NCBI GenBank assembly: GCA_013387205.1
Contig: WARV01000001.1
Location: forward strand, 86-64,085
Origin: Patescibacteria group bacterium
GTDB lineage: Bacteria; Patescibacteriota; Doudnabacteria; UBA920
Direction of reading: 5' to 3'
Length of the DNA: 64,000 bases
Every line of letters begins with the position of its first letter. The stretch's first letter is position 1. The notes under the pieces were generated by a model. It worked only from the letters and a program-made list of their open reading frames with translations. It did not search any database and was not told where the DNA came from. Positions 5,330 through 55,607 of this stretch are shown piece after piece. The position numbers and the translations under genes are program-made.

Positions 5330-5550
5330 GGTTTGGGAAAAATAGGATAGGTAAGACATTACGGACTTTTAGTAAGTTTAAAGAAATGCGAGCATATAAA
5401 TGCGATAGATGTGGAAAGTATCATTTAACAAGCCAAACAAGATTTAATCCAGTATATAATAGGTGATTTATGTGGTATAAGATTTTGATTCCCATACTAG
5501 CAGTAATAATCGGATGGATATTAGGAAAATTAAGTTTAAAAAATTAGTTT

Positions 5551-5964
5551 ATGGCATATAGGAAGATAAAAAAGAACGGGGAAGCTGCAAAGCCAACTTT
5601 AGGGAAAGGAAAACAACCTAAAGTTTCTTTGGATGTATTTACTAAGGTTACGAACGAATATTTGGAATACTGCGAAAAGAATAAACAAATACCCCTTATT
5701 AAGAAATTGGCGGTTTTATTGGGAATTGACACGGATACGCTTGTGAATTATCGCAAAAAGCCGCATTATTCGGCGATTTTAAAAAGAATTGATGATTTGA
5801 CTGAAATTGCTCTTTTGGAGAAGGGAATTAATGAAAATAAGCCTGTATTTCCTATGTTTTTGTTGAAATCAAAGTTTGGCTACGTTGAACAGCAGTATGT
5901 TAAGGCTGATGTAAGTTTATCCGGTTCGTTAGGTTTTAGCCCTTTACCAAGTAAGAAACGCTAG
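5551..5964 (+). CDS. terS: Phage terminase small subunit
   Basis: HTH-like segment IPLIKKLAVLLGIDTDTLVNYRKK and the FLLKSKFGY motif typical of small terminase subunits. Lies upstream of terL. Confidence 0.7.
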   Translation: MAYRKIKKNGEAAKPTLGKGKQPKVSLDVFTKVTNEYLEYCEKNKQIPLIKKLAVLLGIDTDTLVNYRKKPHYSAILKRIDDLTEIALLEKGINENKPVFPMFLLKSKFGYVEQQYVKADVSLSGSLGFSPLPSKKR

Positions 5965-40120: not shown

Positions 40121-41473
40121 TCATGCGGTTTTTATCAATTCGGGCATCTGGGACAAATCGCTTAAAACCAATTTAATAAGTTCAGATTTTTGTTCGGTTA
40201 TGCTCTCTTTTAAATTCTGCCAGGGAACCCATTTGTATTCCACAAACTCATCCCAATCCAAGACGACTTCTTTTTCCTGCCCGAAAAATTTAAAATATGC
40301 AATTTTTTGTTCTTGGCCTTTGTAGTGATATCTCTTCCCAATGAACAGCGGCCTTTTGCCCATATCCTTCCAAAGGTACGCATGGGAATGGTTGGATATT
40401 TTAATCAAGTTGACGCTTCTCATTGCCGTTTCTTCCCAAAGCTCACGCTTTGCTCCTTCTGCAACATCTTCCCCAGGCTCAATCCCGCCCTGCGGCAACT
40501 GCCAATAATTTTCAAAATAATTTTTTGGATAGCCTAAAACATTAATCACTCCTTTTTCAGGATTGAACTTGCCAATAAAAATTTCGTTTTTGTCGTTCAG
40601 TACAACACTTACTACATTGGGCCTATAGGGCAGGCTTAAAAATACTTTGGTTTTGATTAATGCCCAAATTAGGCCAAAGGTGGCATTAAAGATGCGTTTA
40701 ATTCTGTAAGGCTGGGTAAATAGCCTAAATAGCCATTCTAGGCCCATTTTACGCATAAATTTGGGCGGATTTAGGCGTTTTCCTGCCAGATAATCAAAGG
40801 TACCGCCTAGGCCGATAATCATTTTTACAGGCAAATTTTCAAGGTTGGCCGCTATCCAGCGCTCCTGCTTAATTGGCCCGTATGCGACAAATAACAGGTC
40901 GGGTCGGGCTTTTTTTATGTCCTCGATTATACTGGGATCGTCTGGATTTTTGCCTGAAAAAAACAAGGACTGATTTTGACGGCCGTTTAAATTGGTCATA
41001 TGCGAAGAGAGTTTGTTTGCGGCCAGTTTTGCCGTATCGCCAAAACCTCCAAGCAAATAAATTGACCAGTTATTTTTGGCAGCCATCTTTGCCAAATCCA
41101 AAACCAGAGACGAGCCGGGAATGGTTTCTTTGATTTCAGATTTCACCCAGGAAGGCTTGAACAAAATTGCAGCCACACTGTATTTGGCTTGCCAGATCGC
41201 CTGGATAATTTTTGTGTAATATTTTTTCGCGGTAAGCGGGATAGTCACGTACTTGGCAGCCCAGATAATTCCCATGCCATCAGCAACCGCTATGTCTGCT
41301 TTGTTGAGCATGTCCAAAATTTTGCGGTCATTTAAAGCCGCCAGCAGAAATTCGGAATATAAAGTTGTCATCCAGGTTTTTTGGTTTTGCCTGATGCGAT
41401 TTTCTAAATTTTCAAGCAGTTCATTTTTACTAAGCTCGTCTACCTTTAACCCGGCAATATCTATCTTATTCAT
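40121..41473 (-). CDS. Fusion protein: WecB/TagA/CpsF-family glycosyltransferase N-terminal domain with a C-terminal NUDIX hydrolase domain
   Basis: TagA-like core (ADIAVADGMGIIWAAKY...GPIKQERW). C-terminal Nudix box GGIEPGEDVAEGAKRELWEETAM. Track start at 41716; ATG 41473 (MNKIDIAGL) is preferred. Confidence 0.7.
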   Translation of the reverse strand: MNKIDIAGLKVDELSKNELLENLENRIRQNQKTWMTTLYSEFLLAALNDRKILDMLNKADIAVADGMGIIWAAKYVTIPLTAKKYYTKIIQAIWQAKYSVAAILFKPSWVKSEIKETIPGSSLVLDLAKMAAKNNWSIYLLGGFGDTAKLAANKLSSHMTNLNGRQNQSLFFSGKNPDDPSIIEDIKKARPDLLFVAYGPIKQERWIAANLENLPVKMIIGLGGTFDYLAGKRLNPPKFMRKMGLEWLFRLFTQPYRIKRIFNATFGLIWALIKTKVFLSLPYRPNVVSVVLNDKNEIFIGKFNPEKGVINVLGYPKNYFENYWQLPQGGIEPGEDVAEGAKRELWEETAMRSVNLIKISNHSHAYLWKDMGKRPLFIGKRYHYKGQEQKIAYFKFFGQEKEVVLDWDEFVEYKWVPWQNLKESITEQKSELIKLVLSDLSQMPELIKTA

Positions 41474-41542
41474 ATATAATAGTATAACTGATTTTAACAT
41501 TTTTAGGTATCCAAAATTAAAAAAATAAGTTATAATGTACAC

Positions 41543-41833
41543 ATGGAAAGTATAGGAAAAATTGTTAAAATTAAGGGCAAATCGGAAAGGCAAAAGGTTA
41601 AAGTTAACCCTTACCTTCACTCCCCTGCCCACCTTTTGGCCGACGAGTTGTGCCTGAAATTTAATGATAAAAAGCACTTCGGGTTTTACTTGAAAATGGC
41701 CACTCTGTATGACCATAATTTTTTAAGGAATTTGGCCGGGCAAGTGTTGGAAGGCAAAAACGTCAAAACCCCGGGGAAGCTGTTCGCATATTTGATTAAG
41801 AAAAACAATCAGGAGAAGAAAATTTTTAATTGA
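41543..41833 (+). CDS. Hypothetical small basic protein
   Basis: ORF track entry. Confidence 0.35.
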   Translation: MESIGKIVKIKGKSERQKVKVNPYLHSPAHLLADELCLKFNDKKHFGFYLKMATLYDHNFLRNLAGQVLEGKNVKTPGKLFAYLIKKNNQEKKIFN

Positions 41834-41987
41834 CCTAATTATTCTAAAGAGTTTTGTCAATATAAATCCTAATGGCTAATGTCAAATTTTTAGAAATTGT
41901 GGTTTGGGATTTGTTTAGAGCCTGTCCCGTGCCTGACACGGGGTCAATTAGAAATTAGAGTAATTAGAATAATTTGATCGCTAAACT

Positions 41988-42491
41988 ATGGTTTTACCTA
42001 TTGTAACCTATCCGAATAAGATTCTTAGACAGCCGACTGAGCCGGTGACTTTTCCATTGTCCAAGGAAATGAAAAAACTGACTTTGGATATGATCGATAC
42101 TGTCAGGAAAGCTGATGGTATTGGCTTGGCCGCTCCCCAGGTCGGCAAATCGGTAAAATTAATTGTCATAAATTTGGAAAAAGAAGGCGTGAATATTTTT
42201 CCGCTTTATAACCCTAAAATAAAATCCAAGTCATTAAAAAAGATTGAAGTTGAAGAGGGGTGCCTTTCTGTTCCCCATGTTTTTGGGATGGTAAAGCGGC
42301 CGAAAAAAGTGACTGTTCAGGCGCAAAATTTTAACGGCGAGATTGTTGAAATTACCGACGACGGCTGGATAGCCAGGATTGCCCAGCACGAGATAGACCA
42401 CATTAACGGCAAGCTGATTATCGATCTGGCAAAAAAATACACCCAGGGAGAAGAAATTGTTAAAGAGTGGAAGAAGAAAAAGTACATATAA
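41988..42491 (+). CDS. def: Peptide deformylase
   Basis: GIGLAAPQVG, EGCLSVP and HEIDHING motifs. Confidence 0.9.
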   Translation: MVLPIVTYPNKILRQPTEPVTFPLSKEMKKLTLDMIDTVRKADGIGLAAPQVGKSVKLIVINLEKEGVNIFPLYNPKIKSKSLKKIEVEEGCLSVPHVFGMVKRPKKVTVQAQNFNGEIVEITDDGWIARIAQHEIDHINGKLIIDLAKKYTQGEEIVKEWKKKKYI

Positions 42492-42578
42492 TTCGAATTA
42501 CCCGAATCTTATCCAAATGACCCGAAAGGGAATTGTTTGGGGTATTCGGATGGTAATTCGGGGCATTAGGATTATAGA

Positions 42579-43115
42579 ATGAAGTTCATCAAAGACCTTT
42601 TATTTTTTGAAATAGAAACCACGGGGCACGATTCGGACAAAGACAATATTATCCAATTGTCTGCTGTACTGCTCGATAAAGACAATTTGCTGGAAAAAAA
42701 CAATTTTAACACATATGTCAGGGTCAGCTATTTGGACAGCGTGATTTTACAGCACTCTAAGCTGCTGCATACCGATTACGAAACGATAAAGAAAAGCCCG
42801 AAAGTTTATGACGCAATAAAAAAATTCAAGGACAAGTTCGGCAAAGATTTGCTGCTTGCCACCCACAGTGTGGGTAATATTTTGTTTTTGAAAAATGCGT
42901 TTAAAAAAGCTGTGGTTCCTTTTGAATACGACATGCACGTGATTGATTTGTGGACTTTGGGTTATATTTATACTTTGAACTACGGGCTGAAAAAGATGCC
43001 GACTTTCAACACTTTTGTAGATTATTTTAAGTTAAAACAAAAATATCCGCAGAATGCTATGGAGAAAGTCCGGCTCGAAGCGGAGATTTTTAGAAAGATA
43101 ATTAAAGAAGCATAA
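42579..43115 (+). CDS. DnaQ-like (DEDD) 3'-5' exonuclease domain protein, paralog A. The Exo III H...D residues appear to be absent.
   Basis: Exo I motif FEIETTG. The C-terminal region has QNAMEKVRLEAEIF where HDALAD would be expected. Confidence 0.55.
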   Translation: MKFIKDLLFFEIETTGHDSDKDNIIQLSAVLLDKDNLLEKNNFNTYVRVSYLDSVILQHSKLLHTDYETIKKSPKVYDAIKKFKDKFGKDLLLATHSVGNILFLKNAFKKAVVPFEYDMHVIDLWTLGYIYTLNYGLKKMPTFNTFVDYFKLKQKYPQNAMEKVRLEAEIFRKIIKEA

Positions 43116-43233
43116 AACCGCGGAACAAACGCGGATAGCGACGCAGATAACACGCGGAATGCGGTTATCAGCGAGAAATCCGCCACAAAGTGGCCCCTTT
43201 GGGGCGTAATAATCCGCGAGTAATCAGCGATGT

Positions 43234-43800
43234 ATGGATTTTAAAAAAGACCTTTTGGTTATAGACACGGAATTTTCCGGGTTCGACTTGAAAAAACACG
43301 ATTTGCTGCAGTTGGCAGCCGTGTTGCTCGACAGAAAAACTTTAAAGGAAAAAGCGCATTTTAACAGCTACATAAAACCAAAGCATTGGAGAACCAGGGA
43401 TAAGGCATCTATGGCCGTAAACAAGATTTCTTGGCAGCAGGTAAAGGATGCGCCTTCTTTGGAAAAAGTCATAAAGGAATTTGACCAGGCGTTTGATGCC
43501 GATAAGGTTATGCTTACTTCTTATGTCGGTTTTGCGGACAAGCGCTACCTGCTACATGCTTTCAGCGAGGCTGGGGTAAAATTTAAGTTCGATTACCATT
43601 ATTTCGACATCTGGTCTTTTTGCTACGCACATTTAGCCAGGCAAGGGAAACTTATAACCAAAAAAGATTTTGCCGGTTTTGGCATAGAAAGCATGCTAAA
43701 GATGTTTAAGATCAAGTCGACGGGAAAAATGCACGACGCATTAGCTGACTGCCGCATTGAAGCTGAGATATTAAGAAGAGTAATTAAAATTTATAACTAA
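43234..43800 (+). CDS. DnaQ-like (DEDDh) 3'-5' exonuclease domain protein, paralog B
   Basis: Exo I motif IDTEFSG and Exo III motif GKMHDALADCRIEAEIL. Roughly 30% identical to paralog A. Confidence 0.65.
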   Translation: MDFKKDLLVIDTEFSGFDLKKHDLLQLAAVLLDRKTLKEKAHFNSYIKPKHWRTRDKASMAVNKISWQQVKDAPSLEKVIKEFDQAFDADKVMLTSYVGFADKRYLLHAFSEAGVKFKFDYHYFDIWSFCYAHLARQGKLITKKDFAGFGIESMLKMFKIKSTGKMHDALADCRIEAEILRRVIKIYN

Positions 43801-43913
43801 TCTACAAATTTAACGAATAAAACGAATGACAACTAATGCGTACTAAGAAAGAATTAGTTGTCATTAGTTATTATTAGTATGTATTCGTTGATTAGTTAAT
43901 TATATTCGTAATT

Positions 43914-44837
43914 ATGAAGATTGTTTTTTTTGGGACATCGAATTTCGCCTTACCTATTTTGGAAGCTTTGGTTTCAAAGCATGATGTTGCGGCGGTGGTG
44001 ACATCTCCTGACGCGCCGGTTGGACGCAAGCGGGAATTTTCGGAAAGCCCGGTTTCGGCACTTGCTACGGATTTGAAACTAAAAACATTAAAGCCGGCCA
44101 GCCTTAAAGGCAATGACCTATTTCGTTTAGAGCTCGCAGATTTGAAAGCCGACATGTTTGTTGTGGCTGCTTACGGCCGGATTATCCCAAAAGATATTAT
44201 CGAACTGCCGCCGCATAAAACTTTGAATGTCCACCCGTCTAAGCTTCCCAAATACAGAGGTGCTTCCCCTATCCAATACGCGCTCTTAAATGGCGATACT
44301 GAAACCGGCATCAGTATAATGCAGATAGATGAAGAAATGGACCATGGCCCAATTTTGACAATGGAAAAAGCTGCCATAGACAGTGATGATAATTTTATCA
44401 CGTTGTCTGACAGATTGGCGCGAGCTTCGGCCAAATTGCTTTTGGCGGTTTTAGATGAATACGCAAATGGCAGGCTTACCCTTAAGGAGCAGGACCATAA
44501 AAGCGCAAGTTTTACAAAAATTATTACCAAACAGGATGGAAAAGTCGATTGGAATAAAACCGGCCAGGAAATTTTCAACCAGTTCCGCGCCTTTTACCCT
44601 TGGCCGGGATTATGGACGACATGGAACGGCAAAAAGATAAAAATCACCGGCTGTTCGCTGTCGGATTTGAATTTTCCAGACCAGCAGCCCGGTACGGTAA
44701 ATGCTAACGGAGTTGTTGTTTGCGGCAAGGATACGGCTGTTGAAATTTCCAGGCTGCAGATGGAAGGAAAAAACGAGGCTGGAATTTTAGATTTTTTGAA
44801 CGGTTATCCGCAGATTATAGGCAGTAAGTTGGAATAA
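43914..44837 (+). CDS. fmt: Methionyl-tRNA formyltransferase
   Basis: MKIVFFGTSNFALPILEAL N-terminus, HPSKLPKYRGASPIQ, and C-terminal domain. Confidence 0.9.
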   Translation: MKIVFFGTSNFALPILEALVSKHDVAAVVTSPDAPVGRKREFSESPVSALATDLKLKTLKPASLKGNDLFRLELADLKADMFVVAAYGRIIPKDIIELPPHKTLNVHPSKLPKYRGASPIQYALLNGDTETGISIMQIDEEMDHGPILTMEKAAIDSDDNFITLSDRLARASAKLLLAVLDEYANGRLTLKEQDHKSASFTKIITKQDGKVDWNKTGQEIFNQFRAFYPWPGLWTTWNGKKIKITGCSLSDLNFPDQQPGTVNANGVVVCGKDTAVEISRLQMEGKNEAGILDFLNGYPQIIGSKLE

Positions 44838-44847
44838 TAAACGCTCA

Positions 44848-44880
44848 AAAAACAACCCTGGACAAACCTAGGGTTGTTTT
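44848..44880 (+). terminator. Intrinsic terminator after fmt (AACAACCCTgg...ctAGGGTTGTT followed by TTTGTT)
   Basis: 9-bp stem plus a T-run. Confidence 0.55.
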
Positions 44881-44921
44881 GTTAAAATTATAAGCCAATA
44901 CGGAAAGAGGAGGAAGTTTAA

Positions 44922-45236
44922 ATGATTATAGAGTCTGTGATGCGTTTTGAGCAGTCTGGGAGAGTCGAGGTTTTTTTAGGGAAACCGGGTTGTGTGCGTT
45001 GGGTGCTTCTTGCTTATATCGAGAAACAATCTCGGGATAAGTATAAGTATAAATATGTAGAAATTACTGTCGTGGAATCGACCTTTGTTAAGGGGGATCG
45101 CCGGATCACTTTCAAACACGCAAGAGGCCGATCAATGGCCATTAAATGTTACAAAATCGTATCGATCCAAAAGGTGTCGGGTGCGTTGGTGACGATGAAA
45201 TTTCCACCTTTAGTTTCAGATGCAAAGCAAGACTAG
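44922..45236 (+). CDS. Hypothetical protein (104 aa)
   Basis: Strong SD GAGGAGG 7 nt upstream of the ATG. Confidence 0.45.
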   Translation: MIIESVMRFEQSGRVEVFLGKPGCVRWVLLAYIEKQSRDKYKYKYVEITVVESTFVKGDRRITFKHARGRSMAIKCYKIVSIQKVSGALVTMKFPPLVSDAKQD

Positions 45237-45291
45237 CAAGCGCCGTATCCTACAACAATTTTGGGATACGGTGTGCTTTTTAACATCTAGC

Positions 45292-45320
45292 GAATACCTC
45301 AACCGTCGGTTGAGGTATTC
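45292..45320. repeat. 29-bp perfect palindrome GAATACCTCAACCG-T-CGGTTGAGGTATTC
   Basis: Exact reverse-complement arms of 14 bp. Checked base by base. Confidence 0.8.
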
Positions 45321-49480: not shown

Positions 49481-49665
49481 TTTACATCTCAACTTTTTGT
49501 TCCAAAAAATTTTAATAATTTTGGAAGTATAATAATTTTTATTTTAAATTTTTATATTGCAGATTAAACAATTGATTTTCTGGTTGCACTTGCGAAATTC
49601 GTATAAAACTTTACGCACCTGTGTAATCTGTGAACAATATAATTATACTACAAATATCGCAAAAC

Positions 49666-49706
49666 AAAAACCCGCTTCCGGACATGCCGGATTAGCGGGT
49701 TTTTTG
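49666..49706 (-). terminator. Intrinsic terminator (AACCCGCT...AGCGGGTT with flanking A/T runs), likely bidirectional
   Basis: 8-bp GC stem. T-run on both strands. Confidence 0.55.
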
Positions 49707-49868
49707 AAGTAGTCTCAAAACCTCATTTTGGCTGCAATCCCAGAATTTTAGCTGCAAACTTTTCATCGAAACTCACCGTAGCCTTAAGGCTACGCCATCG
49801 TTTCTCTTCAAAGTTTTCGCTTAAAAATTCTGGGATTTCGCCACAAAAGCACGTTTTGAGACTACTTC
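49706..49868. repeat. 163-bp nested imperfect palindrome. Outer arms of 16 bp, GAAGTAGTCTCAAAAC / GTTTTGAGACTACTTC. Inner arms AATCCCAGAATTTT / AAAATTCTGGGATT. Central hairpin CGTAGCCTTAAGGCTACG.
   Basis: Exact complementarity of the outer 16-bp arms and the inner 14-bp arms. Located immediately 3' of hup. Confidence 0.7.
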
Positions 49869-49877
49869 TGACTTCAA

Positions 49878-55287: not shown

Positions 55288-55421
55288 ATGATAAGTGTAA
55301 CAAGCCCAAAATCCGCTGGCAAGATGAAAGTATGGATAGCTACTGTAATTTCTGCGTAGGTAGAAATTAATATTTTGATTATTATCAATGTTCTGGATCC
55401 CAGACTCTATCTGGGATGGAA

Positions 55422-55495
55422 CAAAATGAATGGCTCAACTTAACCCCGTCAAATTGTATTCTTATTTGACTGGGGCGGTTGAGCCATTCATTTTG
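55422..55495. repeat. 74-nt long hairpin. 18-bp perfect outer stem CAAAATGAATGGCTCAAC / GTTGAGCCATTCATTTTG plus an imperfect inner stem.
   Basis: Base-by-base check. Lies in the rarA/yeaD divergent intergenic region. Confidence 0.7.
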
Positions 55496-55506
55496 CCTAA
55501 TTTGGG

Positions 55507-55534
55507 CACTTCGATACATCGATGTATCGAAGTG
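55507..55534. repeat. 28-bp perfect palindrome CACTTCGATACATC|GATGTATCGAAGTG
   Basis: Exact 14+14 reverse complement, ~70 nt upstream of the yeaD-like start. Confidence 0.8.
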
Positions 55535-55607
55535 GGGCTGGCTTGACTTTAGGAGATAATAACCATAAAATGAGATGAAACTGTTGTACCCGAGAAAAGG
55601 AGGGATA

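Follow-up and report, generated by a model that had tools for sequence, protein, structure and literature searches.

Among DEDDh exonucleases, RNase T binds its duplex substrate between two protomers (PMC3942315), and the homodimer of oligoribonuclease (Orn) has been described as the biologically active unit (PMC9779919). Exonuclease folds that have lost their metal ligands and bind nucleic acid occur in Drosophila Exuperantia (Exu) and in the PXL of human PML-1 (PMC12934764), and the N-terminal domain of bacterial pExoDinG is a dead DEDD domain predicted to be a regulatory or binding module (PMC11981726). Two further reports describe 'prozyme' pairs, T. brucei AdoMetDC/prozyme and PRMT1 ENZ/PRO, in which a conserved dead paralog is needed for the active one (PMC5201418; bioRxiv 10.1101/776112). 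Here we analyze a tandem pair of DEDDh-fold genes, exoA and exoB, located between def and fmt in a 64,000-nucleotide stretch of contig WARV01000001.1 (positions 86 to 64,085) from a Patescibacteria group bacterium of the Doudnabacteria (GenBank assembly GCA_013387205.1); this whole stretch is referred to as the window. ExoB appears to be an intact exonuclease and ExoA a dead paralog, and it is the dead copy that is the better conserved of the two. Literature searches on Doudnabacteria, on DnaQ proteins of the Candidate Phyla Radiation (CPR), on def/fmt-linked exonucleases and on DEDDh pseudoenzymes found nothing about this pair, and a search on dead DEDD nucleases retrieved domain-level cases only, either eukaryotic or fused to DinG.

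An earlier note, made from the letters of the window alone, had placed two co-directional DnaQ-like genes inside the def-fmt pair. The open reading frames (ORFs) lie exactly where it put them, all on the + strand, and their families were confirmed. Both proteins pass the gathering score of 24 for Pfam RNase_T (PF00929), ExoB with 83.4 bits aligned over its full length and ExoA with 42.3 bits in a partial match, and at 32% identity (E = 2e-28) they are paralogs of each other. The catalytic pentad of ExoB in the window consists of D11, E13, D102, H167 and D172. For a family-wide comparison of the motifs, 120 ExoA homologs were aligned with 120 ExoB homologs, and 46 species-level ExoA/ExoB pairs were extracted from genome loci. 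The D-E-D-H-D pentad of ExoB was invariant in the alignment (120/120) and in the genome loci (46/46); the note had credited this paralog with Exo I and Exo III. Judged by these residues, ExoB holds everything required for two-metal 3'-5' exonuclease chemistry.

The corresponding positions of ExoA in the window are E11, E13, N100, Q158 and K163. The note had described this paralog as keeping Exo I and lacking the His and Asp of Exo III, which is accurate for the window sequence and understates the loss: the Exo II Asp is also gone (N100), the first Exo I residue is Glu instead of Asp, and Exo I is usually degenerate across the family. The first pentad position is E in 111 and D in 8 of the 120 homologs, while positions 2 to 5 are taken by Q/T/N, N/S/H, F/W/Y and K/R, the Glu seen at position 2 in the window being a minority state. 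The Asp of Exo II and that of Exo III are both missing from every ExoA of the two sets, the His is almost never kept, and the catalytic set as a whole is retained in none of the 120 homologs or 46 species. These species show 33 different ExoA pentads, none of them complete, whose sole regularity is that Lys or Arg has taken the position of the Exo III Asp (44/46). With metal ligands and general base lost, ExoA is predicted to be catalytically dead across the whole family and is a DEDDh member structurally only. The active/dead pairing that had been suggested for the window thus extends, as far as residues can tell, to the entire family. The T-T-G loop that follows Exo I has been kept in ExoA (T 105/120, T 117/120, G 119/120).

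Mean all-against-all pairwise identity, computed per gene over the species loci, is 67.2% for ExoA, 65.5% for orf96 (a small gene upstream of def), 65.4% for GltX, 65.0% for Def, 57.0% for Fmt, 55.4% for ExoB and 50.1% for WecG-NUDIX. By this measure no gene of the block is more constrained than ExoA, and purifying selection acts on it more strongly than on ExoB, Def or Fmt. Since conservation is higher in the dead copy than in its active partner, we conclude that ExoA has a function; for the same reason the pair should be moderately surprising to a specialist. Where a dead paralog outconserves its active counterpart, a regulatory or substrate-recognition role still to be discovered is usually behind it. 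Among 38 diverse ExoA sequences 37 columns are invariant. An ExoA-specific, near-invariant block, W125-TLGYIYTLNYG-LKKMP-T145, stands out together with H59 and E162, and the invariant residues include H59, W125, T126, G128, Y129, Y131, L133, Y135, G136, K139, M140, P141, T145 and E162.

The tertiary structure of ExoA was modeled with AF2 to a pLDDT of 96.4 and a pTM of 0.90 from a 139-sequence alignment of the ExoA, ExoB and outgroup families; with the 38 close homologs alone the pLDDT was 52. A Foldseek comparison of the model with the PDB returned DEDDh exonucleases only (TM 0.75-0.81, 12-20% identity, E about 1e-10 to 1e-8), among them the S. aureus DinG exonuclease domain, S. thermophilus Cas2-DnaQ, RNase T, the PolC exonuclease domain, epsilon, ERI and CRN-4. 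On this model ExoA would be a well-folded pseudo-exonuclease without clear sub-family affiliation.

The distribution of the pair was followed in one genome per GTDB species. ExoA was found in 47 species, whose genomes are labelled Doudnabacteria or Patescibacteria; labels reading 'Saccharibacteria' all derive from one bulk submission. The gene order gltX<-wecG/NUDIX<-|->def-exoA-exoB-fmt is present in 47/47 species loci, as far as the contigs reach, and def-exoA-exoB-fmt recurs in every metagenomic contig looked up, including those of the most divergent ExoA representative looked up (P0317) and of the divergent ExoB proteins P0245 and P0248 from an exhaustive profile search. The two genes strictly co-occur in the 46 paired species loci and in all contig look-ups, the remaining loci ending before exoB, and neither gene was found without the other wherever a contig spans both positions. 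The arrangement is the lineage norm, and exoA and exoB form a fixed tandem pair in Doudnabacteria. The earlier note had named a lineage norm with known function as the finding that would speak against it; a norm it is, and one to which no known function is attached. The pair belongs to the fixed core of an entire class of ultra-small, uncultured bacteria, in which RNA and DNA turnover enzymes are essentially uncharacterised.

By profile scores ExoB is in the DEDDh superfamily, but in none of its named families. The RNase T- or oligoribonuclease-like identity put forward earlier is not supported by this comparison: ExoB scores 14.2 bits against Ribonuclease T (TIGR01298, cut-off 246.2; ExoA is not listed), and against oligoribonuclease (NF003765, cut-off 106) ExoB scores 16.2 bits and ExoA 14.1, with only the N-terminal ~35 residues aligned. 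Scores are equally short for dnaQ_proteo (TIGR01406; ExoB 30.1 bits, cut-off 222.7) and for the epsilon family domain model (TIGR00573, cut-off 71.5; ExoB 28.3 bits, ExoA 29.3). The top NCBIfam match of ExoB, the KapD / ERI-1-like family (NF005838), lies at 42.1 bits, far under its cut-off of 169. A full-length alignment to the Rv2179c-like / RNase AS family (PF16473) gave 22.0 bits vs a gathering score of 27, and a few ExoB homologs have a precomputed match to this family, so a relationship with RNase AS is borderline. The nearest solved structures by sequence profile are the T. maritima PolC exonuclease domain (1.2e-9) and E. coli epsilon (5.7e-6). Within the ExoB family we noticed two subtypes at Exo II (residues 97-106), Y-V-G-[YF]-N-D-K-R-F-L and Y-Y-G-G-P-x-D-M-D-F-L-R-A-A-Y, which also differ around the catalytic His (L-H-D-A-L-V-D-C-R vs R-H-D-A-L-E-D-C-R).

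An exhaustive search with the ExoB profile gave only 17 clusters at E <= 1e-30. The next-best matches beyond ExoA and ExoB are intact DEDDh proteins of ~179 aa, which score 122-134 bits against the ExoB profile and 75-103 bits against that of ExoA. A homolog search that started from P0254 found the family across Saccharibacteria, Nomurabacteria, Campbellbacteria and other Patescibacteria, and this P0254 family, single-copy and with a complete pentad, is the nearest outgroup. Its gene was met in the contexts ybaB-recR-exo-cysS (L054), exo-cysS (L058), exo-ychF-rpsF-ssb-rpsR-efp (L062), divergent from tyrS/trpS (L063) and in two unrelated surroundings (L056, L057), and in none of these six contexts does it lie between def and fmt. 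Long Doudnabacteria contigs are absent from the P0254-seeded matches; one 10-kb Doudnabacteria-labelled contig (L062) is present, and a tblastn comparison of the genes flanking its exo with the window found none shared. ExoB is closer overall to the outgroup (36-43% identity) than ExoA is (31-34%). A short loop before the penultimate helix is common to ExoA and the outgroup, and ExoB has a derived KKDFAGFG insertion there. The simplest history would be that a copy of the Patescibacteria-wide exonuclease was inserted between def and fmt in a Doudnabacteria ancestor and then duplicated, after which one copy lost catalysis.

We tentatively favor, at somewhat below an even chance, a joint reading in which ExoA and ExoB form an asymmetric dimer, ExoB continues a housekeeping exonuclease job, and the position of the pair goes back to the ancestral insertion and duplication. 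ExoA would then be a non-catalytic partner of ExoB, either a 'prozyme' or a substrate-binding subunit. In such a dimer, with its single active site, ExoA would grip the nucleic-acid 3' end or the duplex part of the substrate and ExoB would cut. Since the T-T-G loop is retained and the Exo III Asp is replaced by Lys or Arg, the ExoA cleft may still hold a 3' end or a phosphate with no metal ions. ExoB probably carries on the job of the single-copy ~179-aa exonuclease of other Patescibacteria, a job likely to consist of trimming 3' ends or of the terminal degradation of RNA or DNA, and of importance to organisms dependent on nucleotide salvage. As for the location, one ancestral insertion plus duplication in a constitutively expressed operon is the most likely cause, and not a dedicated role in formyl-methionine metabolism. 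In correlations of distance matrices the best partner of ExoB is ExoA (0.66; partial 0.43), next to 0.69 for ExoA-Fmt and 0.73 for Def-Fmt.

Several observations weigh against this reading. ExoA distances correlate no better with ExoB than with Fmt, which makes the co-evolution signal unspecific. A dimer cannot be assumed from the fold alone, as the DEDDh enzymes ExoI and ExoX are monomers (PMC3942315). In three species an unrelated ORF of the PDDEXK_3 family sits between exoA and exoB, so the pair can do without tight translational coupling. Finally, the nearest solved relatives of ExoB by sequence are the proofreading domains of PolC and epsilon.

The first alternative is that the two proteins act independently, ExoB being the lineage copy of the Patescibacteria-wide housekeeping exonuclease and ExoA a stand-alone binder of nucleic acid or protein, for example a 3'-end 'reader' or protector, with another partner. 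The different rates of the two proteins (67% vs 55% identity), the invariant surface block that ExoA has of its own, the equally close match of ExoA distances to Fmt and the presence in some loci of an ORF between exoA and exoB would all suit this view, as does the existence of stand-alone DEDD pseudo-nucleases that bind RNA or DNA, Exu and PML-PXL (PMC12934764). However, the two genes are adjacent, in the same order and always together in the 46 paired species and all look-ups where a contig spans both, often with spacers of <= 20 nt, and we regard independence as rather unlikely, though as an alternative to be taken seriously. If it holds, ExoA is a new free-standing bacterial pseudo-nuclease.

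The profile similarity of ExoB to the PolC exonuclease domain and to epsilon raises the question of whether the pair serves the replisome, with ExoB as an epsilon-like proofreading subunit for the DnaE polymerase and ExoA as its non-catalytic accessory. Proteins of the ExoA/ExoB type carry the JGI label 'epsilon subunit-like', and in L054 the outgroup ortholog directly follows ybaB-recR, which is part of the widespread dnaX-ybaB-recR replication/repair cluster. In E. coli epsilon the clamp- and alpha-binding segments lie in a C-terminal extension. ExoA and ExoB, however, both end at the Exo III helix, ~6-16 residues past the motif (178 and 188 aa), and have no counterpart of that segment of the 243-aa epsilon chain (5fku_D). 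With ExoB also far under both epsilon cut-offs and the other outgroup contexts consisting of cysS, ychF-rpsF, tyrS/trpS and unrelated genes, a replisome role seems improbable.

Could ExoA instead be an antitoxin-like inhibitor or regulator that masks ExoB or its substrates until needed? A dead gene that precedes its active paralog within one operon and always co-occurs with it is what such a regulator might look like, and the retained 3'-end-binding T-T-G loop could allow ExoA to compete for substrate. However, the pair is a vertically inherited core locus within a housekeeping operon with conserved flanks and no mobile or patchy island, the closest relatives of ExoB occur singly across Patescibacteria without such a partner, and PADLOC gives a generic DEDDh model only. 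We consider the chances of this explanation to be slim.

Of similarly low probability is a stronger version of the dimer, in which ExoA and ExoB form an obligate asymmetric heterodimer, RNase T-like and with one active site, that is functionally tied to def and fmt, for example because it trims or proofreads initiator tRNA at its 3' end ahead of formylation, or because it processes the hairpin-punctuated def-fmt transcript. If true, no earlier DEDDh 'prozyme' system would be known from bacteria, and this CPR class would have gained a lineage-specific component for its translation-initiation toolkit. The earlier note had drawn a link to translation initiation from the position of the genes. This link is weakened by the syntenic block, which also holds genes without a translation connection, by the insertions that part fmt from exoB in several species, and by the unrelated contexts of the nearest active relatives in other Patescibacteria; a dedicated role of the pair in translation initiation is weakly supported at best.

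That exoA is a functionless, decaying duplicate (a pseudogene in progress), as the degenerate and variable state of all five catalytic positions might suggest, is refuted by the conservation data, with an intact frame of 178 aa in 47 species (175-178 aligned residues in the most divergent copies), 37 invariant columns in 38 sequences, the highest conservation of the block and a confidently predicted fold, and is as good as impossible.

The features of the locus are collected in Table 1.

Table 1. Features of the def-exoA-exoB-fmt locus, in window coordinates unless another locus is named. MFE, minimum free energy.
Feature	Position	Strand	Remarks
WecG/TagA-type glycosyltransferase with C-terminal NUDIX hydrolase domain fused	40121-41500	-	
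orf96, conserved 96-aa protein	41543-41833	+	Just upstream of def
Possible promoter	41854-41882	+	TTGTCA, 17 nt, TAATGT; by eye, low confidence
def, peptide deformylase	41988-42491	+	167 aa; Pfam Pep_deformylase E = 1.9e-48
def-exoA spacer	42492-42578	+	Hairpin of CCGAAT/ATTCGG word repeats; MFE -27.9 kcal/mol, z = -2.3
exoA, DEDDh-fold paralog predicted to be catalytically dead (pseudo-exonuclease)	42579-43115	+	178 aa; Pfam RNase_T, partial match
exoA-exoB spacer	43116-43233	+	118 nt, GC-rich; MFE -46.3 kcal/mol, z = -3.9
exoB, predicted intact DEDDh 3'-5' exonuclease	43234-43800	+	188 aa; Pfam RNase_T, full-length match
exoB-fmt spacer	43801-43913	+	AT-rich hairpin, ACGAAT/ATTCGT and ACTAAT/ATTAGT words; MFE -25.8 kcal/mol, z = -3.7
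fmt, methionyl-tRNA formyltransferase	43914-44837	+	307 aa; Pfam Formyl_trans_N and Formyl_trans_C
Intrinsic terminator closing the operon	44849-44884	+	13-bp stem AAAACAACCCTGG/CTAGGGTTGTTTT, then T-rich tail; region z = -3.3
PDDEXK_3 ORF	L004 4552-4965; L013 about 5537-5947; L024 about 5554-5946		

Def and Fmt pass the cut-offs of their NCBIfam equivalogs (TIGR00079, 142.9 bits, cut-off 103.95; TIGR00460, 295.6 bits, cut-off 201.5). The two genes are not immediately adjacent in the window and are separated by 1422 nt with two genes inside. Because a site scan of the window found no + strand terminator-like site in any of the three spacers and a clean terminator follows fmt, def, exoA, exoB and fmt are probably co-transcribed as one unit. 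The possible promoter was not among the sites listed by a consensus scan. No third DEDDh gene was found elsewhere in the 64-kb window. PADLOC yielded the generic CRISPR-associated DEDDh model and weak exonuclease matches only, with no defence system indicated, and an Rfam scan of 41500-45300 at E <= 1 gave no match. A Shine-Dalgarno sequence is not recognisable for def, exoB or fmt. Right after the fmt terminator begins a 104-aa ORF (44922-45236, +) with a strong Shine-Dalgarno GAGGAGGAAGTTTAAATG and no Pfam match.

Upstream, gltX and the wecG-NUDIX fusion gene are divergent from def in the window, and the fusion is found upstream of def in every locus reaching that far. By tblastn orf96 is present in 42/47 species loci at 53-81% identity, and comparable genes of 93-110 aa are called upstream of def in L004, L005, L055 and L059. 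Pfam, NCBIfam, PADLOC and PDB all gave no match for it, and the operon may begin with this gene. In the window orf96 overlaps the mechanically extended 5' end of the opposite-strand wecG ORF.

The GC-rich spacer with three hairpins that the earlier note had placed between exoA and exoB is real: its GC content is 54% vs about 36-43% in the flanks, and an outer stem encloses one long and two short hairpins. As a part of the system it is facultative, however, and its sequence is not conserved. When four spacers and the region after fmt were compared with all loci by blastn-short, only the def-exoA spacer showed conservation, and that in L010 alone (91% over 65 nt); a conserved riboregulator was rejected on this ground. 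Spacers of <= 20 nt occur at def-exoA in 12/47 species and at exoA-exoB in 16/48 (12-19 of about 47 across all three positions), and the exoB-fmt spacer is variable or absent in other species. Those 40-220 nt long fold into strong structures (median z -3.7, -4.6 and -2.9 for the three positions). Other co-directional gaps in these loci are often structured too (median z -2.5 in 97 '--' gaps), and z < -3 is found in 42/56 def-exoA and exoA-exoB spacers vs 46/104 other gaps (Fisher p = 2e-4), which is a moderate enrichment.

In the window and in the orthologous spacers (L007-L049) the hairpins are long and imperfect, with arms made of runs of ~7-10-nt words, which stand as direct repeats on one arm and in inverted form on the other. 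The words vary by species and by spacer while the word-run style recurs; L010, for example, has GTGGACA GTGTACA GTGATCA ... and CCACTAT CCACTGA CCACTAT, and L029 has AGTTCTC three times and AGTTATC twice. Words related to CGCAGAT / CACTGAT / CGCGGAT and their complements recur in spacers of many species. We read the spacers as facultative palindromic insertions that are no defining part of the exoA/exoB system. Elsewhere in the window very long palindromes occupy two intergenic regions, 49493-49877 (z = -12.5) and 55288-55574 (z = -8.8), with structure far beyond the needs of a terminator.

The PDDEXK_3 ORF (PF13366; 137 aa) lies within the exoA-exoB spacer hairpin in L004, L013 and L024, which suggests that a small selfish ORF lands in the palindromic spacers or is carried by them. 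By eye, the L024 copy is perhaps broken by a stop codon. Insertions of 300-750 nt part exoB from fmt in L007, L013, L014, L022, L024 and L035, and contain a small ORF on the reverse strand in the first five of these and on the forward strand in L035. In L014, L022 and L024 a promoter-like motif, TTTTGTCAA-N17-TAtAaT, follows the reverse-strand ORF just before fmt and resembles the possible promoter of the window. Given these insertions and the promoter-like motif, fmt is probably not always co-transcribed with exoA and exoB.

In summary, we have described a tandem pair of DEDDh-fold genes that is fixed between def and fmt in Doudnabacteria. If ExoA is the substrate-binding half of the pair, it would show how a homodimeric DEDDh nuclease can split its roles over two genes, and it would offer a handle on the function of the Patescibacteria-wide single-copy exonuclease. 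In sequence, ExoA and ExoB are both closest to this P0254 family, which has the same length and shares with them the MxFxKD-LL N-terminus and the F-D-Y-H motif; its pentad is intact. Unlike exoA and exoB, it is a single gene in other contexts, has no dead partner and is uncharacterised. The exonuclease domains of epsilon and PolC, the top profile matches among solved structures, have the same fold and pentad as ExoB, which differs from them in having no polymerase- or clamp-binding tail. RNase T and Orn resemble ExoA and ExoB in being single-domain DEDDh proteins of about 180-215 aa, and the top Foldseek matches of the ExoA model include RNase T chains (TM about 0.7-0.75). Both work as dimers, an architecture in which a dead subunit could still contribute. 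However, they are homodimers of one gene product and ExoA/ExoB an active/dead paralog pair, their genes are not found between def and fmt, and ExoB is in neither family.

Adjacent genes for an active and an inactive subunit are known from the archaeal exosome, in which Rrp41 and Rrp42 are RNase PH-like. With the 'prozyme' pairs ExoA/ExoB share a dead paralog that is under purifying selection and strictly co-occurs with the active one; the folds and chemistries of these pairs and of Rrp41/Rrp42 differ from those of ExoA/ExoB, for which a complex is at present a proposal. Like Exu, PML-PXL and pExoDinG, ExoA has retained the exonuclease fold with its metal ligands gone. Those three, however, are domains of larger proteins, Exu and PXL being eukaryotic and pExoDinG of the DEDDy type, whereas ExoA is free-standing and DEDDh, and none of them is, as ExoA is, a free-standing bacterial protein encoded beside its active paralog.

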